A DNA stretch of 17,431 nt from positions 1-17,431 of IMG/VR virus record IMGVR_UViG_2541047898_000005. One strand, written 5' to 3'. Source of the DNA: a virus. Lineage: Duplodnaviria > Heunggongvirae > Uroviricota > Caudoviricetes. Positions 4,747-17,431 of this stretch are shown here, in pieces. The notes beneath the pieces are model-generated. The model saw only the letters and a list, made by a program, of their open reading frames with translations, searched no databases and had not been told where the DNA came from. Every line of letters starts with the position of its first letter. Position 1 is the first letter of the stretch. The translations under genes and the position numbers were made by a program.

Positions 4747-6117
4747 ATGACGTGGAAAGACAGGCTTCAGGATGCGTCATTTCGAGGTGTGCCGTTTAAG
4801 GTTGAAGAAGAAAGTGCGGGAACCGGCCGTCGTGTGGAAACACACGAATATCCGAACCGCGACAAACCCTATACCGAAGATCTGGGAAAAGTCACTTTCC
4901 GCCCGTCCATCACGGCTTATGTGGTGGGAGATGACTGCTTTGACCAGCGCGATCGCCTGATTGACGCGCTGAATAAACCCGGTCCCGGCACGCTTGTCCA
5001 TCCGACTTACGGTGAGCTGAAAGTCTGTGTTGACGGGGAAGTTCGGGTCAGCACATCGAAGAGTGAAGGGCGTATTGTCCGCTTTGACCTGAAGTTTGTC
5101 GAAGCGGGAGAACTCTCTTATCCCACTTCAGGTGCGGCGACGGCGCAGACGCTGATGTCATCCTGTTCTGCACTGGATGACTGCATCAGTGACAGCTTCA
5201 GTGGTTTCAGTATCGATGGCGTGGCGGATTTTGTGCAGAACGACGTCGTCGGTAATGCCGGCACAATGCTGGGGTATGTTTCTGATGCGATGAAAGTGGT
5301 GGATTCTGCCGTATCGGATGCCGCCAGGCTGTTGCAGGGGGATATCTCGGTACTTCTGCCGCCGCCATCGTCAGGCAAAAATTTCGTTGAGCAGGTGCAG
5401 AAAATGTGGCGTACCGGGAAACGCCTTTATGGTAACGCCAGCGACCTGGTCACCATGATCAAAACGCTTTCCGGTGTCAGCCTCGGCAGCGATCTGCAAC
5501 CGCGCGGCGTCTGGAAAACGGACAGTAAAACCACCGCCACGGCGACGCAGCAGCGTAACGTGGTTGCCAGCACCCTTCGTGCGACCGCAATCAGCGAAGC
5601 GGCGTATGCCGTCACCCGATTGCCTGCGCCAACAACTTCCGCGGTGATGCAGAATGCCGCAGTGGGGCAGTCAACAACTTCCGCGGTGATGCAGAATGCC
5701 GCAGTGGGGCAGGCAACAACACCCGCGCAGAGCACTGGCTGGCCTTCCGTCACGCATCCGGCACTGAACAATGCTCCGGCGGTGAAAAGCACGGTTGACC
5801 TGCCGACGTGGGAAGAACTGACTGACATTCGCGACACACTGAATACGGCAACTGATAAGGAGTTGTCCCGTACAACCAGTGATGCGCTGTTTCTGGCGCT
5901 GCGCCGGGTGAAAGCAGATCTGAATGCGGATATCAACACGCGCCTTGAACAGTCTGCACGGATCATTCAGCGCACGCCGGATGAGGTTTTACCCGCGCTG
6001 GTGCTGGCGGCGACCTGGTTTGATAACGCGGCGCGTGACGCGGACATTATCCGGCGTAATGCCATTACGCATCCCGGCTTTGTGCCGGTGATCCCTCTGA
6101 AGGTGCCAGTGCAATGA
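4747..6117 (+). CDS. DNA circulation protein (Mu gpN / gp43-like)
   Basis: Position after the tape-measure gene in Mu order; N-terminus MTWKDRLQDASFRGVPF... matches my memory of the Mu N family. ATG at 4747 has a GGAG Shine-Dalgarno; the track's GTG at 4741 is less likely. Confidence 0.65.
   Translation: MTWKDRLQDASFRGVPFKVEEESAGTGRRVETHEYPNRDKPYTEDLGKVTFRPSITAYVVGDDCFDQRDRLIDALNKPGPGTLVHPTYGELKVCVDGEVRVSTSKSEGRIVRFDLKFVEAGELSYPTSGAATAQTLMSSCSALDDCISDSFSGFSIDGVADFVQNDVVGNAGTMLGYVSDAMKVVDSAVSDAARLLQGDISVLLPPPSSGKNFVEQVQKMWRTGKRLYGNASDLVTMIKTLSGVSLGSDLQPRGVWKTDSKTTATATQQRNVVASTLRATAISEAAYAVTRLPAPTTSAVMQNAAVGQSTTSAVMQNAAVGQATTPAQSTGWPSVTHPALNNAPAVKSTVDLPTWEELTDIRDTLNTATDKELSRTTSDALFLALRRVKADLNADINTRLEQSARIIQRTPDEVLPALVLAATWFDNAARDADIIRRNAITHPGFVPVIPLKVPVQ
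5632..5715 (+). repeat. 42-bp in-frame tandem duplication (2 units) inside the DNA-circulation gene
   Basis: acaacttccgcggtgatgcagaatgccgcagtggggcag(t/g)ca twice, encoding TTSAVMQNAAVGQ(S/A) twice. Confidence 0.9.
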
Positions 6118-7193
6118 ACGATAACGTCACGCTACGGGTAAATGGCCGAGAGTGGAATGGCTGGACATCGGTGCGCATCGGTGCCGGTATTGAACGGCTG
6201 GCGCGGGATTTCAGCGTGGAGATCACCCGCCAGTGGCCGGGAGATGAGGGTATCACCACGCTTCAGCCGCGCATTAAAAATGGTTCAAAAGTGGAAGTGC
6301 TGATTGGTGATGAGCTGGTGATCACCGGCTGGGTGGAGTCGACCCCCGTTCGTTACGATGCCCGTTCGGTCAGCACCGGTATTGCCGGACGTAGTCTGAC
6401 TGCTGACCTGATTGACTGTGCAGCCGAACCGACACAGTTTAACGGACGATCGCTGGTACAGATTGCGCAGGCGCTTGCTGCGCCTTTCGGCATTGAGGTG
6501 GTGAACAGCGATGCGCCGTCGGGTGTTATTCCGGATGTCCAGCCTGATCACGGTGAAACGGTGATCGAAGTGATCAACAAAATACTCGGTCAGCAGCAGG
6601 CGCTGGCTTATGACGACCCGCACGGCAGGCTGGTGATTGGTGGTATTGGCTCAACGCGGGCACATACCGCGCTGGTACTTGGGGAAAACATCCTTTCCTG
6701 TGATACGGAGAAGAGTATCCGGGAGCGGTTTTCAGTTTACCAGGTGGCGGGGCAGCGTGCCGGAAACGACGATGATTTCGGTGAGGCCACCACCACCGCG
6801 CTGCGGGCCCGCACAGAGGATGCATTTATTGCCCGTTACCGTCCGATGTATATCAGGCAGACAGGGCAGGCTACGGGGGCAGGCTGTATTGCGCGTGCTG
6901 ACTTTGAAGCCCGACAACGGGCGGCGCGGACGGATGAAACCACCTATGTGGTGCAGGGCTGGCGACAGGGTAACGGTACGCTGTGGCAGCCCAACCAGCG
7001 GGTGATTGTCTTCGATCCGGTCTGTGGTTTCGACAATACCGAACTGCTTGTCTCGGAAGTCACGTTTACTCAGGACCAGAATGGCACCCTGACGGAAATC
7101 CGTGTCGGCCCACCTGATGCTTATCTGCCTGAACCCGAAGCCCCCGGCGCGCGGAAAAAGAAAAAAGCCAGAGTACAGGAGGACCCGTTCTGA
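6114..7193 (+). CDS. Baseplate hub / tail protein (Mu gpP / gp44-like)
   Basis: 359-aa ORF with ATGA overlap to the upstream gene; synteny between the DNA-circulation and spike genes. Confidence 0.55.
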   Translation: MNDNVTLRVNGREWNGWTSVRIGAGIERLARDFSVEITRQWPGDEGITTLQPRIKNGSKVEVLIGDELVITGWVESTPVRYDARSVSTGIAGRSLTADLIDCAAEPTQFNGRSLVQIAQALAAPFGIEVVNSDAPSGVIPDVQPDHGETVIEVINKILGQQQALAYDDPHGRLVIGGIGSTRAHTALVLGENILSCDTEKSIRERFSVYQVAGQRAGNDDDFGEATTTALRARTEDAFIARYRPMYIRQTGQATGAGCIARADFEARQRAARTDETTYVVQGWRQGNGTLWQPNQRVIVFDPVCGFDNTELLVSEVTFTQDQNGTLTEIRVGPPDAYLPEPEAPGARKKKKARVQEDPF

Positions 7194-9789: not shown

Positions 9790-10293
9790 ATGCATCGTAT
9801 AGACACGAAAACCGCGCAGAAGGATAAGTTCGGCGCGGGTAAGAACGGTTTTACCCGTGGTAACCCCCAGACCGGCACGCCTGCCACCGATCTGGATGAT
9901 GACTACTTTGACATGTTGCAGGAGGAGCTTTGCAGCGTTGTGGAGGCATCCGGTGCCAGCCTGGAGAAGGGGCGGCACGACCAGTTGCTTACCGCGCTTC
10001 GTGCGCTGCTGTTAAGCCGCAAGAATCCGTTTGGCGATATCAAATCGGATGGCACGGTGAAAACGGCTCTCGAAAACCTTGGTTTGGGAGAAGCGGCTAA
10101 ACGAAATGTGGGAGCACCTGATCATCGGATTCCAGACATATCTGCATCAGGCTCTGGCAAATACAACTGTGAGGTATCTTGTGCTCAAAATGACCCAGAG
10201 TTGTCAAAGGATTTTCCTGGGAAGGAATCAACTGAATCAAGAGGTAATTTTATTATTGGATGTGATGACGGCGCAGGGGTTGATACAGGCTGA
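9790..10293 (+). CDS. Tail fibre protein: constant N-terminal part (9790-10096) fused to the currently expressed variable C-terminal cassette (10097-10293)
   Basis: ORF runs across the left inverted repeat into the invertible segment. The post-repeat C-terminus resembles the minus-strand cassette at the other end (GEAAKR...SGKYN...ESRG(N/K)F). Confidence 0.6.
10079..10096. repeat. Left inverted repeat / putative recombination crossover site of the invertible segment (ttggtttgggagaagcgg)
   Basis: Perfect 18-bp inverted repeat with 11911-11928, lying inside the tail-fibre ORF and next to a Gin/Pin-family invertase gene. Confidence 0.85.
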
Positions 10294-10997
10294 TGTTCAG
10301 TGGGTACTCAAGCCGCAGCGCCGGCCTAGAAACTTATTCCGTTTGTGGCAACCAAGGGATAAGAATCAATAGAAGTATCAGACCGGGCGGCTATGTATAG
10401 AAGAGTAAATATGGAAATAGGAGGATTTTATGCATCAGCAGACTTAGGGCGCCTGGGCCAATCACTGACACGTTATTAATTAAGAAAACACTTTAATACT
10501 GGCTGGAACGAGGCCTGTTGATGCATTAGTTCATCTAGCTGAAATGTGAGTGATATATATGGGAGAACGCCGAATAGGAAAGAGCCCAGATTGCTAGGAA
10601 GATGGTTAACATAACTGGCTATAAATACCTCGGTGATACGAGGGAGAATTTATTTACAAGGACTGATCAGATAGCAATGGGTGTCGGAACTCGACCAAAT
10701 TCCTCTTTAACCGTAAATAGTAGCCCGGTGACTGGGTTAATGATTTGCCGATAGGTGAGGAACAGGCCCTGTATATATTTTGCCTACAATAGCGGTGGGA
10801 ACGTGTGCAGGATGATAATGGCGGGGGCCAAGAAAATGACTGCCCTAGGCGACTGGCCGTAAAGGCCAACTGCCGTCCGCCGGGGAGCTCGTAACTGTAA
10901 CTGGCATCGCGTAAAAGTGATCACGGACAGTGTTAAGTATGATTGTGCCGGAGTAGGTCCGGCTGAGTCCCGGCTGCAGTCACTGTTTAATCCGGCT

Positions 10998-11009
10998 GAG
11001 GGTACCCTC
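10998..11009. repeat. Perfect 12-bp palindrome gagggtaccctc at the exact centre of the invertible segment
   Basis: Symmetry axis falls between 11003 and 11004, which equals (10079+11928)/2. Confidence 0.9.
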
Positions 11010-11644
11010 TGTTTCATCCAACTGAGATTGGAGCTCTGCTTTAAACGCTCCTACGCCGGAACCGTCTTATTTCTCAGTGTCTTGCACCAAATTTACGCCG
11101 TCACAGTAACAGAATCCCGTTAACCGCCGGATAGCGGTTGTACTGAACGGCCAGTGGCGTAGGCCTTTCATTACTTTGCCATCCCGCGGTTTGAAGCTAC
11201 ACACGTGCCTACCGAGATGGTCTCACAAAATTTCATTGCATTTGAACCCCACAGAACAGCCGACTATAAGAGGCGCCATCGGTCTACTGTTAGCGTCTAA
11301 AGAGTTAGATGCCCGGATACCTACATACTCGCCTAGATGATTCGTTGATGTAGATATATATTCCCTCTGATCGTGGACGTATTTATAGACAGGTGGGTAC
11401 CCCGCTTTCCTATTAAACTCGTCTTTTCTCTATACGGCGTTATCCAATATATTGTACAGAAAATACATTTAGATGCACTATTTCATGGGCGGGTCACGCT
11501 CCATTCACTACATCAGATTTTCTCACATTAACGGAGTGAAGGTCATTTGATGAGAGTCACTAAGGAAGTGGATTCATCAAGCCTCCTTCCTTGGGTATAC
11601 GTAGTTCTAAACATACCAGTTCGTGCCGATTCTTCTTTTGTGTC

Positions 11645-11928
11645 TTACGTATCTTTTGTGATAACCGCCTTACGGTGCTTGGCCGGCGCACCGGCTAGTG
11701 TACTCTCTGAAAATCGTCCTCTATCAATAACTGCCCCGGCAGCCAAGGCAAGAGGAAACTTACCGCGAGATTCGTGAGATTTCGCTCTTTGATCATCCTT
11801 CGCAAACTTCGGGTATATATCACCACTAAGTAACTGAAAGTTGTATTTGCCAGATCGAAATGGAGATATAGCTGAAATCTGTTGATCAGGTATTCCAACA
11901 GTTCGTTTTGCCGCTTCTCCCAAACCAA
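11645..11928 (-). CDS. Alternative tail-fibre variable C-terminal cassette (promoterless; would fuse to the constant part after inversion)
   Basis: Minus-strand frame open from the right inverted repeat to a stop at 11645, encoding GEAAKRTVGIPDQQISAISPFRSGKYNF...ESRGKF..., parallel to the plus-strand cassette. Confidence 0.45.
11911..11928. repeat. Right inverted repeat / putative recombination crossover site (reverse complement of 10079-10096)
   Basis: ccgcttctcccaaaccaa is the exact reverse complement of ttggtttgggagaagcgg. Confidence 0.85.
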
Positions 11929-11994
11929 CGTTTATGAAAATGAAGAAATAACAAGCAAATGGCATCATTCCTGCTTTTACCAGGGGGATTTAAC

Positions 11995-12549
11995 ATGCTT
12001 ATTGGCTATGTACGTGTATCAACAAATGACCAGAATACCGATCTACAACGTAATGCGCTGAACTGTGCAGGATGTGAGCTGATTTTTGAAGACAAGATAA
12101 GCGGTACAAAGTCCGACAGACCAGGACTGAAAAAGCTGCTCAGGACATTATCGGCAGGTGACACGCTGGTGGTCTGGAAACTGGACCGACTGGGGCGCAG
12201 TATGCGGCATCTTGTCGTGCTGGTGGAGGAGTTGCGCGAACGAGGCATCAACTTTCGTAGTCTGACGGATTCAATTGATACCAGTACCCCAATGGGGCGC
12301 TTTTTCTTTCATGTGATGGGTGCCCTGGCTGAAATGGAGCGTGAACTGATTGTTGAACGAACAAAAGCTGGACTGGAAGCTGCTCGCGCACAGGGACGAA
12401 TTGGTGGACGTCGCCCCAAACTTACACCAGAACAATGGGAGCAGGCCGGACGATTAATTGCAGCAGGAATTCCTCGCCAGAAGGTAGCGATCATCTATGA
12501 TGTTGGTGTATCGACACTGTATAAGATGTTTCCGGTCGGAGATAAATGA
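11995..12549 (+). CDS. pin: Site-specific DNA invertase, serine recombinase of the Gin/Hin/Pin/Cin family
   Basis: 184-aa product beginning MLIGYVRVSTNDQNTDLQRNAL... with the catalytic Ser in the YVRVST motif, ...VVWKLDRLGRSM..., and a C-terminal HTH-like region (GIPRQKVAIIYDVGVSTLYK). It matches the Gin/PinE sequences I remember closely. GGGGGA Shine-Dalgarno 6 nt upstream. The track's upstream Met (11959) is probably not the start. Confidence 0.9.
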   Translation: MLIGYVRVSTNDQNTDLQRNALNCAGCELIFEDKISGTKSDRPGLKKLLRTLSAGDTLVVWKLDRLGRSMRHLVVLVEELRERGINFRSLTDSIDTSTPMGRFFFHVMGALAEMERELIVERTKAGLEAARAQGRIGGRRPKLTPEQWEQAGRLIAAGIPRQKVAIIYDVGVSTLYKMFPVGDK

Positions 12550-12716
12550 AACCGCAGGCTCGTCGTATGCAAGAACGTGCTGCGGCTGGCTGGTGAACTT
12601 CCGATAGTGCGAGTATTGAATGATTTACAGCCGTTATTGATTTTACATATTTTTTGTATGAAAGGATTAGCGCCTCCTCCCACCGATCCTCCATGACTTT
12701 ACGCCACTGTCTCTCG

Positions 12717-12741
12717 GACTGCTATGTGCCAGGAGCGGATG
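12717..12741. repeat. Junction motif copy A (ggactgctatgtgccaggagcggatg)
   Basis: Shares gct(a/c)tgtg(c/t)caggagcgga(t/c)g with the copy at 14257-14281; located between pin and the first cargo gene. Confidence 0.5.
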
Positions 12742-12792
12742 CGACCCATCGGCATGTTTTAGTCGTCGCAAGCAAATCATAACGGTTAATTG

Positions 12793-12822
12793 TTGAGTAG
12801 ATTTTTCATGTCAATTTATATT
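12793..12822 (+). promoter_or_regulatory. Possible sigma70 promoter for the 432-aa cargo gene (TTGAGT, 18 nt, TATATT)
   Basis: Weak hexamer matches in an AT-rich leader; AAGGAAG Shine-Dalgarno before the ATG at 12882. Low confidence. Confidence 0.2.
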
Positions 12823-12881
12823 ATTGTAGATAAGTCTGATAAAAATTTCAGTCACATCCTCTTGGATAATAAGGAAGTTAT

Positions 12882-14180
12882 ATGAAAGCTCGTTTAATAC
12901 CACCGTACGAAAACTACACTGGCAATGTTTTATGGCGAAAAGAGGATTTTATTAATAAAGTCGACGATATCTCAACATCTCTAAAAAAGTTAAGAGATAT
13001 GGGATATTGGGCCAGTGCCTATCCTGAAGGAGATGGCATTACATTTAAATATACCAAGGATAGTTATCAAAAAAGCAGTATCGAAATTCTAGAAGACTTC
13101 TCAATATGCTTTGAGTGGGTAGAAATAGAGTTAGCTAAATCAAGAAGCTCTAACCTAGAATTAGCTGAATTAGAGGGTAAAAACAAAAATATGGAGTGCA
13201 TAGTTATTGTGCCGATTGAGAAGATTTTCATTCAGGAAACCATCGAGATCGGAAAGTATATTTTTTATTGCGGAAGACAATTTGATGAAGAGTCACATAA
13301 GCGATTATCAGAGCAAGATGGTTCGTATATACAGTTTAACTGTGACCTACCATATATTGATTTATTAAAACTTAATTCAAGCATTGATCATAACAGCCAT
13401 GTTATAAACATGTGTTTATCTATAGCTGAATATGCGCTTGATTTAGTCAGATTTTCTCACAGCTCATTTACACGTATGGAATATACCCCTAATCCTGCAG
13501 GTCAACGCTCTGACGGATTTTATGATGTAGAAATCATTCCTCGTGAGAGGACTCATCTTAAACCAATTAAGATAAGTGGAATATCAAGACCCCTTGCTGT
13601 GAGTAATAATTGGCTAGGCCCTCAGGTTGACAGCTTGTATTACCCTGGGTTGCAATATTTATCTTCTATCTACGATGGAGTCGTTGAAAATGAACTTTCA
13701 AAATTAGTTAGCTCCGTAGTTAGGGCATGTAGGCAATCTTTTTATTCAATTGGCGCGGAATCACAATTTCTAAACCTAGTCTTTGCACTTGATGGTCTTG
13801 CTAATATTGACCCAAATTGGAAAGGATGGAAGCAAAGGACCTACATTGCAGCACTTACATGTAATAACTCACTAATCAAATTTAAGAAAAACCTAGAAGT
13901 TTATGACGAGTTATATACTGACGTAAGAAACAAGCTTGTTCATGATGGTAAAGATTTTTACGAACTTAACGTCAACGCGAACGAATCCTCTGAACAAATC
14001 TTTAAGTATATTAAGATAATTATAATACTCATCGAAAGTAACGGCTTTTCCACTTTGCAAGAATTGAGAGATTATGCAGTTCACCTACTTCAGCAGGAGG
14101 ATTATAGAACTGCTTCTGTTGAGATAATTGACAAAGTATCTCTTTTAAGAGGAAAAAAACCTAATTATCCTTCATGGTGA
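12882..14180 (+). CDS. Hypothetical cargo protein with a C-terminal HEPN-like R-x4-H motif (candidate abortive-infection RNase)
   Basis: 432-aa AT-rich ORF with a strong Shine-Dalgarno. Motif DVRNKLVHDG fits the HEPN R-[NQ]-x3-H signature, about 90 residues from the C-terminus in a predicted helical region. Family assignment is inference. Confidence 0.45.
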   Translation: MKARLIPPYENYTGNVLWRKEDFINKVDDISTSLKKLRDMGYWASAYPEGDGITFKYTKDSYQKSSIEILEDFSICFEWVEIELAKSRSSNLELAELEGKNKNMECIVIVPIEKIFIQETIEIGKYIFYCGRQFDEESHKRLSEQDGSYIQFNCDLPYIDLLKLNSSIDHNSHVINMCLSIAEYALDLVRFSHSSFTRMEYTPNPAGQRSDGFYDVEIIPRERTHLKPIKISGISRPLAVSNNWLGPQVDSLYYPGLQYLSSIYDGVVENELSKLVSSVVRACRQSFYSIGAESQFLNLVFALDGLANIDPNWKGWKQRTYIAALTCNNSLIKFKKNLEVYDELYTDVRNKLVHDGKDFYELNVNANESSEQIFKYIKIIIILIESNGFSTLQELRDYAVHLLQQEDYRTASVEIIDKVSLLRGKKPNYPSW

Positions 14181-14256
14181 TTAAATCAACGTGCTAATTA
14201 ATTTTTAATATAACTTCTGCTCCTCGCTCTCAGCGGACCTTCAGCTCAGTGATATC

Positions 14257-14281
14257 GTCCGCTCTGTGTCAGGAGCGGACG
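14257..14281. repeat. Junction motif copy B, forming a hairpin (stem GTCCGCTC/GAGCGGAC, loop tgtgtcag) between convergent cargo genes
   Basis: 8-bp perfect stem read from the sequence; no U-tract, so not a canonical intrinsic terminator. Left half matches copy C, right half matches copy A. Confidence 0.5.
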
Positions 14282-14373
14282 TTACTGACATCACAATGTG
14301 TTAATCAATGGAGAGCAGGTCACCATAATGTCATGGGTATCGCTGGTGATATGATCGCAATACACGACAATTA

Positions 14374-15063
14374 TTATTTAATTATTTTAAAAAGTTCATT
14401 GTAGCTACAACCTTTGAATATTTCGAACTGATCATGGTAATTTGAATAAGCGCTTGCCATCATTCCGATATAACTATCCCATGATGACTCAGAAACTACC
14501 ATTTCACCACGCTCTAATTCATCAATTAAAATATAAATGATATTAAATTGTGCAACAAGAGCAGTGTAGGTGGTGATGAGATTATTTAGAAGGTCTGAAT
14601 GATTAGGTTTGATTTTCCACAAACCAAAACTATCCCGAATTGCAACTAATTCGAATCGTAAATCTTTTGACTCAGAAAGTAACTCCCTCCCACTTGTAGT
14701 GAGATGCTTGTAGAGTATGGGGTTCTCACTTTTTATTCTTGGCTGTATAGAAATAAGTGATTGATAACATTGATGATTTAAGTCCTTTGATCGAAACATG
14801 CTGTCGATGAACAATGTAGTTCTCTCGAAAGCCTTTTCTGATTTTTTGTTTTTAATCCATTCATTTACCCTTGTTAATGCATAAATCGCTAGTCCAAGTG
14901 TTATTGTTGAAACTGTTGCAGTAATTGTTGATGGTTCAATTTTTTTAAAAAACCAGATATCAATCCATGCAAAAGAGACTGAGCCGAGATACATAAACAA
15001 CATGTGACTCGCGAAGTATTCCCAAACACCTTTTAAATAGCTTTTCATGTAGATCCTTAACAT
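14374..15063 (-). CDS. Hypothetical membrane protein (two N-terminal TM helices plus a ~150-aa cytoplasmic domain); real start probably the internal Met at 15048
   Basis: AT-rich ORF. Hydrophobic segments MLFMYLGSVSFAWIDIWFF and ITATVSTITLGLAIYAL. The ATG whose reverse complement is at 15046-15048 has an AAGGA Shine-Dalgarno 5 nt upstream, whereas the first ATG has none. Confidence 0.5.
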   Translation of the reverse strand: MLRIYMKSYLKGVWEYFASHMLFMYLGSVSFAWIDIWFFKKIEPSTITATVSTITLGLAIYALTRVNEWIKNKKSEKAFERTTLFIDSMFRSKDLNHQCYQSLISIQPRIKSENPILYKHLTTSGRELLSESKDLRFELVAIRDSFGLWKIKPNHSDLLNNLITTYTALVAQFNIIYILIDELERGEMVVSESSWDSYIGMMASAYSNYHDQFEIFKGCSYNELFKIIK

Positions 15064-15217
15064 TTTCTTAATTATATTTTATGGTGGTATTTTTGTTAGT
15101 ATCGGTATGGATTAGAAATAGTTGATACTTTTATGCCCTGAGAGCATGAAAACTGGAAAAGCCTTGCTCATGATATAAATAGTGTTAGTTGCCACTGCTT
15201 TGGAAGTTATCCTTTAA

Positions 15218-15412
15218 ATGGGCTATCGGAAAGCCAGACTTCTAGCAGATGCTGAATCCGTGATTTTGCCGCTGGAGCGCGCTGTCAGGCTGAATATGGC
15301 AACAGATGAGGAGCGCAGTCGACTGGAGGCATGGGAACGCTACAGCGTTCTGGTCAGTCGTGTGGATCCTGCAAATCCTGAATGGCCGGAAATGCCGCAA
15401 GAAGTTGTATGA
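15218..15412 (+). CDS. Hypothetical small protein (64 aa; Glu/Arg-rich, predicted helical)
   Basis: ORF with normal (non-AT-rich) composition inside the 640-bp spacer between two cargo genes; no recognisable motif. May be a gene fragment. Confidence 0.25.
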
Positions 15413-15438
15413 GCTCTGGTGTGAGCTTACATATCTAT

Positions 15439-15478
15439 GGCACAGAGTAAAGCCTAATCTGACAGTCCGCTCTGTGCC
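15439..15478. repeat. Junction motif copy C within a 9-bp-stem hairpin (ggcacagag ... ctctgtgcc, 22-nt loop)
   Basis: Contains gtccgctctgtgcc, which shares 12 contiguous nt with copy B; lies between the membrane-protein gene and the RES-like gene. Confidence 0.5.
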
Positions 15479-15702
15479 GAAGCTAGCAAAGCCATGGTCC
15501 TTTCGCAGCAAGTTGCGTAAATAAGGCGTTTTTATCTCTTGAAGCATTCTACAAAGCCAACTCCTCGCTCAAACAGACGTGTCTGTTCAGCAATCTGCCC
15601 GCTTGGTATCAAGGGACGCCAGTAACGCGATACCGGGTGAATTCCTTCCTTAACTGCCCTCACATCATCTTTAATAATAGTTTACCCTGATATAACGGAT
15701 GA

Positions 15703-17082
15703 TCAGAAGTCAATCAGGTCATCGAATTTCTGAGGTGGCTCTTGTTTTCGAACGCTATCTCCCTGATGAATCTCCGTCTCACTTGTTTGGTATTTTACAC
15801 CAGTAATTTTATGATAAGTCATACTGTTGGTTTTCAACAGTAGTGCATCATTTTTGTCATGCGAGGATGAAAATGAACCCATATGTCTCGGTTTTATTTG
15901 TTCCTCAACTATCAACTGAATTTCCGGAACAAAAGCATACTGGTCATCTTCGATGTGTTCATACATCTCAACATTATATCGGCGAGATTTATCTGCGGCA
16001 TGCCTGACGCCGGAAGACTTATTAAACAGAACGACATTATATCCTGTCTCAGCATCCTCACCGTTGGCATCTACCTGGGTAGATTTAAAGCTGACACCAT
16101 CAAGCTTAAATTTATTTCGGTCACCTAGGTAATCGGCAACCACTTGGGTGATGAGGTAATCACTGTCCTGCCTTTTTCCAAAAGTAGGAAGCGTCAACTT
16201 ACGGGAAAGCGTACTGAAAAAAATCGCGCGCTCACTGGTTTTGCGAGTCTGAGGATCAAATTTACTACCTGAGCCGAAACTAATCGAGTCAAGGGCAGAA
16301 ATGTCCAGCACTTTTAGCTCGCGTAACGGTACAAAACAGGCCGTTACTACAATACTGCCGACGGGCGGCCTTACTTCAGCAATTGCCAAATTCACTGAGG
16401 TTGCACCGTAAAATACTGAAATCCCCTGTGCGTTCATACGGCCCGAGCGAGCCAAAGTTGTTGGGGGAGGTCCAAAATTTTTCTCGGGATGCTCCAAGGC
16501 TTGCTTTACTTCCTCTTGGTCCTCAAAAACCCTTGCACGAAAAAGATGAACCTCATCAGTCAGAGTTTTTATCGGTGAATTACTGTCTCTGTTTTTTAGT
16601 TTATCGATATCACTGAAAAGTGAATCTAGGAAATCATTAACTTCACGGTTAAAATATCGTGTTTCTTTCATAAGGGAGTCAGTGGCTTTACTCCAGGTAT
16701 GCGCAAGCTCTCCGCTATAGTGATTTATGTGCCGATAAAGAAACCCGTCATTATACCGGATGTAGTCATAATCGTTATGCGGATTATATTCATCACAAAG
16801 AAATTCATAAATATCTTCAGCTACGTCCCATTCGACGCCCAGTTCTCCGTAGATGACATCCTGCGCGCTATCACCGCGCCCGGAATCATAGATATCCTCA
16901 TATATATCATAGTAGTACTCAAAAACCTCATTCATCATCTTGAGAATATATTTGAGGTGGATGTTTTTACGCTTCCTTTTGCAGTAAGAGCAAATCTGAA
17001 AATTATTTCCAGTTTTTATTATATGCTGCATGACATATTTATCGTTCACGCATTTATGACAAATATACTTATCTTCCCACAT
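15703..17082 (-). CDS. RES-domain-like protein with an N-terminal Cys4 zinc-ribbon-like motif (candidate NAD+-targeting effector)
   Basis: 459-aa AT-rich ORF. N-terminus has CHKC...CSYC. Central segment LFRARV...(~25 aa)...ARSGRMNAQGISVFYGATSVNLAIAEV...(later) VSFKS...YNVVLF fits my memory of the RES (Arg-Glu-Ser) core, G-R-x-N...G...Y.A......A..E. No HMM search run. Confidence 0.55.
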   Translation of the reverse strand: MWEDKYICHKCVNDKYVMQHIIKTGNNFQICSYCKRKRKNIHLKYILKMMNEVFEYYYDIYEDIYDSGRGDSAQDVIYGELGVEWDVAEDIYEFLCDEYNPHNDYDYIRYNDGFLYRHINHYSGELAHTWSKATDSLMKETRYFNREVNDFLDSLFSDIDKLKNRDSNSPIKTLTDEVHLFRARVFEDQEEVKQALEHPEKNFGPPPTTLARSGRMNAQGISVFYGATSVNLAIAEVRPPVGSIVVTACFVPLRELKVLDISALDSISFGSGSKFDPQTRKTSERAIFFSTLSRKLTLPTFGKRQDSDYLITQVVADYLGDRNKFKLDGVSFKSTQVDANGEDAETGYNVVLFNKSSGVRHAADKSRRYNVEMYEHIEDDQYAFVPEIQLIVEEQIKPRHMGSFSSSHDKNDALLLKTNSMTYHKITGVKYQTSETEIHQGDSVRKQEPPQKFDDLIDF

Positions 17083-17278
17083 TTTTTACTCACTCATCAT
17101 CAGCTGATACAAGGTCACTTTCCTGCAATTTTATAATTAAATCAAGCATAAAAACCCTCTTCACACCTTAATGCTTTCAGTGTGAAAATAATTAGTGGTG
17201 CACTGTACTGATAATAATTACGAACTTCCGCTTCTCGCTCATAACAGACATTCACTACAGTTATGGTAGAAGGTATGT

Positions 17279-17431
17279 ATGCTGATTGGGGAAAGTGTGA
17301 AAGAAAAGAAGACTGCTGCGCTGTTTGTCGTCACCTTTATCTTCATTGGCTATGCAAGTCATAATACAAGGTGGGACAAAACTGAGACACATAAGGCCTC
17401 ACAATGGCTTGCAAGGCTTTACATGTTTTGA
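17279..17431 (+). CDS. Possible small membrane peptide (50 aa), divergent from the RES-like gene; ORF ends exactly at the window edge
   Basis: ATG at 17279 preceded by AGAAGG. Translation MLIGESVKEKKTAALFVVTFIFIGYASHNTRWDKTETHKASQWLARLYMF has one hydrophobic helix. Below the ORF-track length cut-off; weak support. Confidence 0.2.
   Translation: MLIGESVKEKKTAALFVVTFIFIGYASHNTRWDKTETHKASQWLARLYMF

Follow-up and report, generated by a model that had tools for sequence, protein, structure and literature searches.

The 432-aa open reading frame at positions 12882-14180 of the window, by which we mean the whole stretch of 17,431 nt that was analysed, codes for an uncharacterised HEPN-type protein, ORF432, whose sequence suggests that it probably cuts RNA. 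Together with its own 5' region and a promoter-like site, the gene forms a stand-alone, AT-rich cassette of 1.5 kb (about 12725-14238), and the protein defines a small, horizontally mobile family. By analogy with known HEPN systems ORF432 would most likely be an anti-phage suicide switch. On balance we consider it probable that it is a single-gene HEPN effector of infection-activated, RNA-cutting abortive defence, and that its cassette arrived via exchange within the cores of short junction units.

The cargo region lies in an SfV-like E. coli prophage with a Mu-type tail, in a hotspot between pin and the prophage end. The docking site is 3' of pin, where the prophage adjoins the host yagP/paoD genes; in a locus that is 99.8% identical to the window (L001) the invertase gene is annotated as 'pinE' in RefSeq. 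Three concatenated modules make up the cargo region, with a doublet of junction units (types B and A) and a truncated unit in between:

11959..12549, plus strand: pinE-type serine DNA invertase, the final conserved prophage gene ahead of the cargo (Pfam Resolvase 1.6e-51, and HTH_7)
12550..12724, plus strand: conserved backbone 3' of pin, extending through the left arm of unit A1 (comparison with locus L002)
12717..12740, plus strand: junction unit A1, a hybrid, GACTGCTA / TGTGCCAG / GAGCGGAT (comparison with L002 and with Klebsiella aerogenes L140)
12793..12822, plus strand: candidate sigma-70-like promoter within the cassette, TTGAGT-18-TATATT (9 of 12 matches to the consensus)
12882..14180, plus strand: ORF432, 432 aa (ORF call, fold and homologue alignment)
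14215..14238, plus strand: junction unit B1, TTCTGCTC / CTCGCTCT / CAGCGGAC, which closes the ORF432 cassette on the right (L140 homology stops at 14238)
14239..14256, plus strand: 18-nt linker of the B-A doublet, CTTCAGCTCAGTGATATC (kept in other doublets)
14257..14280, plus strand: junction unit A2, a perfect palindrome, GTCCGCTC / TGTGTCAG / GAGCGGAC, which opens the next module (homology breakpoints)
14374..15063, minus strand: ORF229 (224 aa in RefSeq), second cargo module, without a family match
15227..15412, plus strand: 3' fragment of a tail-fibre-assembly gene, a pseudogene scar (RefSeq annotation in L001; identical arrangement in the P2-like hotspot L011)
15465..15478, plus strand: truncated A unit, GTCCGCTCTGTGCC, with unrelated sequence after it (comparison with L011)
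15703..17082, minus strand: RES-domain protein with HEPN/RES N-terminal domain 1, the third cargo gene (Pfam RES 3.1e-14, HEPN_RES_NTD1 7.8e-4)
17226..17249, plus strand: junction unit B2, a hybrid, TTCCGCTT / CTCGCTCA / TAACAGAC, the right end of the cargo region (flank comparisons)

The ORF432 gene has an ATG start with a Shine-Dalgarno sequence (AAGGA) 7 nt upstream and is AT-rich, as originally predicted (33-37% GC vs 48-50% in the pin region). The candidate promoter is a mere consensus match of a kind that is no more numerous than in shuffled sequences; its region is conserved in the K. aerogenes cassette. The protein divides into an N-terminal alpha/beta region (residues ~1-250), with 13 beta strands in the N-terminal half, and a C-terminal HEPN domain (~257-422) with the four-helix up-and-down core of the HEPN superfamily. 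The original prediction pointed to DVRNKLVHDG near the C-terminus as a HEPN-like R-x4-H signature. The peptide is there, at residues 347-356, which is some 80% of the way along and not the extreme C-terminus, and the reading of the signature is borne out by the fold and by the homologues: R349-N-K-L-V-H354 is an Rx4-6H motif of the HEPN type, R349, N350, L352, V353 and H354 are invariant in 48/48 homologues with identities down to 44%, and the wider signature R-N-x-[LIV]-V-H-x-G is conserved in the domain. Among distant relatives that share only residues ~150-429, the R and the H are retained in 35/35. The protein is also modular, in as much as residues 1-125 are found on other C-termini and residues 150-429 on other N-termini.

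The best structural matches of ORF432 include the HEPN domains of AF0298 (2hsb) and sacsin (3o10) as well as minimal HEPN/HepT toxins; Foldseek against PDB and BFVD gave no match at E<0.1, and family searches in Pfam, NCBIfam, PHROGs and PADLOC returned none. When the 48 homologues were run against Pfam, a weak HEPN_RiboL-PSP match appeared in 6/48 (best E 0.0045), the rest being scattered noise. Sequence-profile matches in PDB to the N-terminal helix of Hsp90 (E 0.44-1.2) were rejected as chance because the N of the GHKL motif is missing. Several of the top structural matches, AF0298 and sacsin among them, are HEPN domains without a shown RNase activity, and one could therefore imagine a non-catalytic or non-RNA role for ORF432, such as ligand or nucleotide binding, regulation or lysogenic conversion. 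We regard this as quite improbable, since the R, N and H and the flanking G are strictly invariant across two homologue tiers, as would be expected of a catalytic Rx4-6H site, and since the site matches that of ApeA, which is dead on R-to-A substitution.

It is instructive to compare ORF432 with ApeA, an anti-phage HEPN system that consists of one gene (Gao et al. 2020; bioRxiv 10.64898/2026.01.26.701840); its R-to-A mutants lose defence, and the protein cleaves tRNA anticodon loops. Both are stand-alone single genes with a C-terminal HEPN domain and non-catalytic N-terminal domains, both share, by eye, the RNx[IL]VHxG signature and an ExQxLNLxxAx[ED]xL helix, and some ORF432 homologues are labelled 'Apea-like HEPN domain-containing protein' in UniRef. 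Anantharaman et al. 2013 list Apea-type HEPN domains with a fused 'ApeA-NTD1, ~300 aa, mostly beta'. On the other hand, ApeA has about 583 aa vs 432 aa in ORF432, and its N and Mid domains are all-helical, in contrast to the alpha/beta N-terminal half of ORF432, which lacks this three-domain architecture. The PADLOC ApeA model (PDLC02157) matched neither ORF432 (E<=1) nor 10 relatives (E<=0.01), while the positive controls P0270 (Ec2ApeA-type, 2.2e-12) and P0352 (1.7e-6) were matched, and an hhalign comparison of ORF432 with ApeA profiles aligned 72 columns, covering the catalytic helix only (E 0.012, probability 3.6%).

We infer RNase activity, activation by infection and a defence role for ORF432 along the following lines. 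An exchangeable module, made up of the first ~130 residues, is presumably the sensor. In analogy to ApeA and other HEPN defence proteins, the lysogen would most likely hold the protein in an inactive state until a phage infection supplies the activating cue. Once active it would cut cellular RNA (tRNA, rRNA or mRNA) and abort the infection, which would protect the lysogen population and the resident prophage. Alternatively, the same activity could serve to stabilise the cassette or the prophage: ORF432 would then be an addiction or toxin module that works by post-segregational killing and is not triggered by infection, the inhibitor being either the N-terminal region in cis or an unrecognised small antitoxin or RNA nearby. 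ORF432 does share the HEPN fold and the Rx4-6H motif with HEPN-MNT (HepT) and minimal HEPN proteins, but it is three times larger (432 aa vs about 130-140 aa for HepT toxins), it carries a fused N-terminal region, and the MNT (nucleotidyltransferase) antitoxin gene is absent beside it in every context compared. Neither was any other conserved partner gene found, the neighbours being different in each context compared and all of them without a family match; the intergenic spaces within the cassette are short and gave no RNA family match. These features make the addiction module improbable.

As for the nearest neighbours of ORF432 in the window, a two-gene system with ORF229 was dropped because ORF229 and the 266-aa neighbour in Serratia are unrelated. 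ORF229, for which family searches gave no match, belongs to the second cargo module and is not a partner of ORF432; the P2-like hotspot L011 contains it in the absence of ORF432, and ORF432 occurs elsewhere with neighbours other than ORF229. The whole ORF229-tfa'-RES module of the window is present in this P2-like G/FI hotspot. The gene at 15703..17082 is named 'RES family NAD+ phosphorylase' in RefSeq.

Clustered at 50% identity, a set of 1.84 billion proteins contains 194 clusters of the ORF432 family, and at 90% identity or above the protein is spread over eight or more genera of enterobacteria. Within E. coli the cassette is rare: its carriers are only 6-7 of 5426 complete genomes, and while ~190 nt at the start of the query are found in 1657 E. 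coli records, the remainder is found in only 6-7. The surroundings of the gene vary widely. In the prophage hotspot a RES-domain gene is near, the Pseudomonas relative shares its integrase island with DEAD, MazG and SLFN-type helicase genes, the Salmonella relative is among the conjugation genes of a conjugative element, and the K. aerogenes relative is inside a chromosomal cassette array. That array holds the same 1.5-kb unit at 91% identity among varied neighbours, which agrees with the prediction that the cassette was acquired as a unit, and a comparison of the locus across related elements, as had been suggested, showed that the presence of the cassette varies and that its borders are at the flanking units.

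The borders themselves deserve closer attention. The original prediction placed two copies of a motif at 12717-12741 (GACTGCTATGTGCCAGGAGCGGATG) and 14257-14281 (GTCCGCTCTGTGTCAGGAGCGGACG), where we also find them, and took the gene to be bracketed by the two. The copies are related (20/25 positions by our count and 17/19 by repeat search, with ~18/21 given earlier), and the left copy is indeed at the border; the right end of the cassette is however the inverted unit at 14215-14238, and the second copy opens the next module. Homology to K. aerogenes L140 begins at 12725 and ends at 14238, so that unit A1 is split, its left arm and core belonging to the prophage backbone and its right arm to the ORF432 cassette. 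Homology with the P2-like prophage hotspot begins at unit A2, and in L134, which has a different downstream cassette, homology to the window ends at 14283. Unit B2 is split as well: its left arm plus core go with the RES module, the right arm being prophage backbone. Homology between contexts breaks within the unit core, and the truncated unit at 15465..15478 is an old junction broken within the core. A transposon with terminal inverted repeats was considered and rejected, because the outer arm of each unit remains with the flank and not with the cassette. Pin was likewise rejected as the recombinase acting at the units: the same units occur in P2-like hotspots that lack an invertase in their vicinity.

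The type A unit has 24 bp and reads GTCCGCT-N-YGTGCCAR-N-AGCGGAC; at the two sites in the window (12717-12740 and 14257-14280), which mark cargo borders, the core is YGTGCCAR and the arms are GTCYGCT / AGCRGAC. Its inverted partner, type B, has the core TCGCTCA and is found at 14215-14238 and 17226-17249. A 16-nt degenerate motif pattern gave exact matches only at the two A sites, with ~0.6 matches expected even when 3 mismatches are allowed. In viral contigs a same-strand B unit follows 72/87 A units at a median distance of 1.5 kb, the 87 being those A units that have a downstream B unit or at least 4 kb of downstream sequence. GenBank records of the P2 Z region annotate these units as left and right inverted repeats (AJ512676-AJ512685; Nilsson et al. 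2004), and in P2-EC46 and related records an A unit that follows the tail-fibre assembly gene falls inside the annotated 'left inverted repeat'; apart from these 2004 repeats, the literature we searched contains no description of the units. The likeness to Z/fun, a variable locus of P2-like coliphages and the P2 hotspot of Rousset et al. 2022, is close, since both loci have the same 24-bp units and AT-rich foreign ORFs between inverted units; the ORF432 site differs in that it follows pin in an SfV-like prophage and is not between G and FI. In the e14 element of E. coli K-12 the defence gene mcrA does stand directly 3' of pinE at the prophage end, as stated in the original prediction, yet there is no A or B unit there and the downstream backbone is another one.

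Two explanations of the units have to be weighed. They might be structural or regulatory hairpins (at operon ends, or for RNA stability) that offer 24 bp of shared sequence without being recombinase sites. Cassettes would then be swapped through short-homology recombination of the Red/RecET type, ordinary homologous recombination or a template switch at the palindrome. The perfect units do fold as hairpins, the units are located at the ends of tail-fibre operons, and for P2/P4 hotspots, homologous and illegitimate recombination were invoked in a 2026 study. The hybrid units, including A1, do not fold, arm pairing is not kept (C-A mismatches and unpaired positions 8/17 are common), and the terminator scan found no intrinsic terminator at any unit and no T-tract after any of them; the two matches in Rfam are sub-threshold (E 0.12 and 0.31) and neither is at a junction unit. 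Moreover, the exchange points cluster in the 6-bp core, which is invariant, and not in the 7-bp arms, although these are just as conserved; unit positions 4, 8 and 9 track the left flank and 16, 17 and 21 the right flank, and the orientation of B relative to A in viral contigs is 81:1. The hairpin explanation therefore seems rather unlikely to us.

The other explanation, which we put forward tentatively, is a widespread cassette-exchange system that recombines at the units. Within cassette arrays, in 12/12 enterobacterial loci, a gene for a 200-aa tyrosine recombinase lies precisely between one B unit and one A unit, which also speaks against mere hairpins, and in other Proteobacteria related recombinases are followed by related CGGCCAR cores. 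In CFT073 the 200-aa protein is WP_001305361.1. The protein lacks an N-terminal core-binding domain, and its scores to Xer- and integron-integrase-like catalytic domains are weak, far below the cut-offs. It is a candidate for the enzyme that exchanges defence cassettes. It is not encoded in the prophage stretches examined (P2-like L011 and the SfV-like window), and tblastn of the phage collection found no enterobacterial phage with a close relative, observations that would suit the hairpins. For the enzymology we infer that this catalytic-domain-only recombinase, encoded in chromosomal or plasmid arrays of Enterobacterales, would catalyse crossover in the 6-8-bp cores. Because the flanking cores are inverted and non-identical (TGTGCCA vs reverse complement TGAGCGA), one cassette would replace another through A-by-A plus B-by-B exchange with neither excision nor inversion, like engineered recombinase-mediated cassette exchange, and the ORF432 cassette would have come in this way, through type A on the left and inverted type B on the right. 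The recombinase would act in trans on the phage hotspots, P2 G/FI and the site downstream of pin in SfV-like prophages, which would be its docking sites.

At first sight such a system resembles integrons, with arrays of short cassettes, imperfect-palindrome sites, a tyrosine recombinase gene in the array and a fixed exchange point in the site. The A and B units are however without GTTRRRY boxes, the recombinase of 200 aa is not of the IntI type and lies inside the array with cassettes on both sides, and the cassettes are flanked by two inverted non-identical cores, have their own promoters and occur in either orientation. Neither the recombinase nor an integron-like defence array was described in the literature we searched.

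ORF432 combines a HEPN signature with membership in a mobile family outside Pfam, NCBIfam, PHROGs and PADLOC and with a place in a prophage defence hotspot; it is therefore a well-defined candidate for a single-gene abortive-infection system, with a presumed sensor domain unlike that of ApeA. In our opinion the borders of the cassette weigh more than the protein itself. A 2026 survey of thousands of P2/P4 hotspots left unknown the mechanism that moves defence genes between hotspots and other mobile elements. Since exchange points map to the cores of the A and B units and a candidate recombinase gene is embedded between such units, this question of transfer becomes directly testable. If the proposal is true, a cassette-exchange system would explain how defence genes like ORF432 move between phages, islands and plasmids.

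The window covers the late-gene end of an SfV/SfI-type E. coli prophage, in which the genes for a Mu-like baseplate and tail, and for a tail fibre that has an invertible segment, lie upstream of the invertase gene pin. From pin to the window end (12550-17431) the sequence consists entirely of cargo: ORF432, ORF229, a tail-fibre-assembly pseudogene fragment (tfa scar) and a RES-domain gene, which are bounded by 24-bp junction units of two types, A and B.

Cargo and junction units downstream of the tail genes
11959-12549, pinE-type serine invertase gene (pin)
12717-12740, unit A1, left of ORF432
12882-14180 (+), ORF432, 432 aa
14215-14238, unit B1, right of ORF432 and 18 nt before A2
14257-14280, unit A2, preceding ORF229 (-) and the tfa scar
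14374-15063 (-), ORF229 (224 aa in RefSeq), without family match in any library
15227-15478, 3' fragment of a tail-fibre-assembly gene with a truncated A unit (15465-15478), before the RES gene
15703-17082 (-), RES-domain protein, 459 aa, with HEPN/RES N-terminal domain 1 (RefSeq: RES family NAD+ phosphorylase)
17226-17249, unit B2, right of the RES gene (-)

On the 99.8% identical chromosome NZ_CP080080 (locus L001) the prophage adjoins host yagP (a LysR fragment) and paoD. The 3' half of a thrW-like tRNA (including GGTTCGACTCCTATTATCGGCACCA; L001 ~10930-10995, ~50-115 nt beyond the window end) is located between the cargo and the truncated, yagP-like LysR gene, and is presumably a copy of the att site. 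Upstream of pin, the tail-fibre segment (~10293-11959) is found in both orientations among otherwise near-identical prophages (L227 vs L228, L134 vs L137), which points to an active pin inversion switch. Just past the pin stop codon, in conserved backbone, Rfam gives a hit below its threshold to CssrB, an sRNA encoded on the Shigella chromosome (12544-12584; E 0.12, with 23 bits where the gathering score is 76).

ORF432 has the length and the AT-richness originally described (33-37% GC vs 48-50% in the pin region), and the DVRNKLVHDG segment that had been read as a HEPN-like signature corresponds to its residues 347-356. The protein has no match in Pfam, NCBIfam, PHROGs or PADLOC. A collection of 5.8 billion proteins contains 171 homologues, nearly all 425-440 aa long; they come from gamma- and beta-proteobacteria, plus one cyanobacterium. 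Every one is called hypothetical, and UniRef labels a few 'Apea-like HEPN domain-containing protein'. Among 48 aligned homologues, with identities down to 44%, R349, N350, L352, V353 and H354 do not vary; these include the arginine and histidine of the predicted motif. The AlphaFold2 model built from the alignment is confident (pLDDT 91.8, pTM 0.85) and places an alpha/beta part at residues 1 to ~250 and a helical bundle at 257-422, the motif being at the end of helix 331-353; the HEPN-like fold anticipated for the C-terminal part is present in the model. The helical-bundle fold together with the invariant catalytic-type motif supports the reading of ORF432 as a HEPN protein, and from this we infer RNase activity.

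When 1.84 billion representatives were searched exhaustively with a profile, just 194 related clusters emerged. Three are full-length; of the others, some share residues ~150-429 and differ in their N-terminus, and some share ~1-125 and differ in their C-terminus. Judged by these partial relatives, ORF432 is modular. The motif form R-[NT]-x-[IVL]-[VT]-H-x-G is found in 35 of 35 C-terminal relatives, and ten relatives compared with Pfam and PADLOC gave no match (0/10).

A known parallel is ApeA, a single-gene HEPN defence protein that cuts tRNA anticodon loops, forms ring oligomers, is activated by deoxydinucleotides and is inactivated by R-to-A mutations in the motif. We recovered Ec2ApeA-type proteins at full length and aligned 32 of them for comparison. 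The two families have in common an ExQxLNLxxAx[ED]xL helix, whereas the motif reads RxRNxIVHSG in Ec2ApeA-type proteins and VRNKLVHDG in ORF432. ApeA (~583 aa) is mostly helical, while the N-terminal half of ORF432 is predicted to be beta-rich; the PADLOC ApeA model matches the ApeA controls but not ORF432, and the profile-profile alignment extends over only 72 columns (E 0.012, HH probability 3.6%). ORF432 is therefore outside the ApeA family as currently modelled. A 2013 HEPN census describes 'ApeA-NTD1', a mostly-beta domain of ~300 aa fused to an Apea-type HEPN, and this fusion may be the same architecture. By analogy, ORF432 probably works like ApeA.

The proposal that the gene and its putative promoter were acquired as a unit is supported by a K. 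aerogenes chromosomal array (L140), which contains a relative with 86% protein identity: DNA homology to the window extends from 12725 to 14238 (91%) and ends on both sides. The promoter candidate of this cassette is a consensus match only. The exact protein is always behind pin within this prophage family, followed by varying cargo (ORF229 plus RES, a 260-aa ORF, a 373-aa ORF or a DUF4365 gene). Other relatives are found in a Serratia chromosomal islet beside an unrelated 266-aa gene, in Salmonella as cargo of a conjugative element, and in Pseudomonas within an integrase island, next to DEAD, MazG and SLFN-type helicase genes. At least eight enterobacterial genera have proteins with 90% identity or more; among 5426 complete E. 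coli genomes, just 6-7 carry the gene.

The two related motif copies that were reported to bracket the gene, A1 and A2, are both present and agree at 20 of 25 positions (17 of 19 by repeat search); a 16-nt degenerate pattern has no other mismatch-free occurrence in the window. Each unit consists of two 8-nt inverted-repeat arms flanking an 8-nt core. Type A is GTCCGCT-N-YGTGCCAR-N-AGCGGAC. The type B core is NTCGCTCA; its reverse complement, TGAGCGA, shares 5 of 7 positions with the A core TGTGCCA, which makes B a non-identical copy of A in inverted orientation. A1 is a hybrid, with a left arm and core that match the backbone present in 1657 E. coli records and a right arm, GAGCGGAT, that belongs to the ORF432 cassette and is the first stretch common with K. 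aerogenes; in another lysogen the A1-type left arm and core are followed by TAGCAGAC and different cargo. B2 is the mirror image, as TTCCGCTT-CTCGCTCA travels with the RES module; next comes TAACAGAC in SfV-like prophages and AAGCAGAC in a P2-like prophage. The content of the G/FI hotspot in a P2-like prophage (L011) is identical to the ORF229-tfa'-RES module of the window, starting from A2. Within the module, the A unit after the tfa scar is broken inside the core, between GTCCGCTCTGTGCC and GAAGC; it is a fossil junction, and part of this cargo formerly stood behind a P2-type tail-fibre assembly gene. ORF229 moves together with the tfa scar and RES, not with ORF432, and the RES protein is a second toxin-like cargo gene of the same hotspot.

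The degenerate A pattern is found in at least 120 IMG/VR contigs, against ~0.2 chance matches by our own estimate; the search demanded both arms intact. Among 91 non-redundant A units, the commonest left flank, that behind the P2 tail-fibre assembly gene, occurs with 22 different right flanks. Variable positions 4, 8 and 9 are predicted by the left flank, while 16, 17 and 21 are fixed by the right flank and the left has no predictive value for them, which places the exchanges within the invariant GTGCCA core and not in the equally conserved arms. On this flank evidence, the GTGCCA core is the exchange point of the A unit. Among the 87 A units that have either a B unit or 4 kb and more of sequence downstream, 72 are followed by a same-strand B unit at a median distance of 1.5 kb, and the orientation of B relative to A is 81:1. 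Recombination by short homology or template switching at conserved hairpins could be an alternative account of the sites; arm complementarity is not kept up, hybrid units do not fold, and no T-tract or terminator likeness was found in the units. We consider this account doubtful. The A core (C/T)GTGCCA(A/G), e.g. window 12725-12732 and L012 3050-3057, includes GTGCCAA, which would correspond to the 7-bp core in the sfx sites used by Rci, the shufflon recombinase of R64.

The junction repeats of the P2 Z-region, the variable cargo locus of P2-like coliphages, are already known as GenBank features: AJ512676-AJ512685 ('proviral Z-region', P2-EC30 to P2-EC67) have a 'left inverted repeat' feature over these unit sequences, and AJ512680 additionally a 'right inverted repeat'. 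Rousset et al. 2022 cite Nilsson et al. 2004 for variable loci, and a 2026 NAR analysis of P2/P4 hotspots does not mention palindromes, hairpins or repeats and leaves open the mechanism of exchange with other elements.

A possible enzyme precedes the ORF432 cassette in K. aerogenes (L140:4215-4817), where the gene for a 200-aa tyrosine recombinase lies ~63 nt downstream of a B unit, with its stop codon 19 nt before an A unit (GGCTGC-aaca-GCAGCC-C-TGTGCCAR, then a variable arm). This setting, within arrays of A/B-bounded cassettes, was always found (L012:718-1320, L140, L145 and L147-L155), including nine further Enterobacterales species (L147-L155, ~6001-6603) whose B-A doublet arrays are all oriented like the recombinase gene. 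In E. coli MSB1_9I a 94% identical recombinase adjoins an HNH gene, a B-A doublet and a restriction gene, and the CFT073 array (L145, with the recombinase gene at 12076-12678) reads A-gene-B, int, A-ETEC_3214-B-gene-B.A-TonB receptor/ABC operon-B. The last CFT073 'cassette' (L145 14737-20522) is a 5.3-kb operon of a TonB-dependent receptor and an ABC transporter, hence the units also bound non-defence cargo. Of 5426 E. coli genomes, 904 have the recombinase, on the chromosome and in some cases on plasmids, and it occurs in at least 547 species genomes; tblastn against a phage collection found no close relative in enterobacterial phages. NCBIfam detects only a Xer/integron-integrase-like catalytic domain, far below cut-offs, and no N-terminal core-binding domain, and an R...HxxR...H...Y pattern is readable in the sequence. 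In non-enteric relatives (L160-L226) the gene is followed by a GC-rich hairpin and CGGCCAR-NAGCRGNC, a related core of different sequence, which suggests that recombinase and site lineages co-vary across Proteobacteria. We point to this protein as a candidate enzyme for the P2 Z/fun-type repeats, by association and not proof.

Recombinase-mediated cassette exchange offers an analogy for the proposed swapping of cargo between A and B units. Cassettes would be exchanged by crossover within the unit cores; since the two unit types are inverted relative to each other and their cores differ at two positions, exchange of A with A together with B with B would, by the same logic, replace one cassette with another without inversion or excision. 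As to the cargo itself, we think it reasonably likely that ORF432 is an infection-triggered HEPN RNase, such that phage infection would switch on the enzyme and lead to abortive infection.
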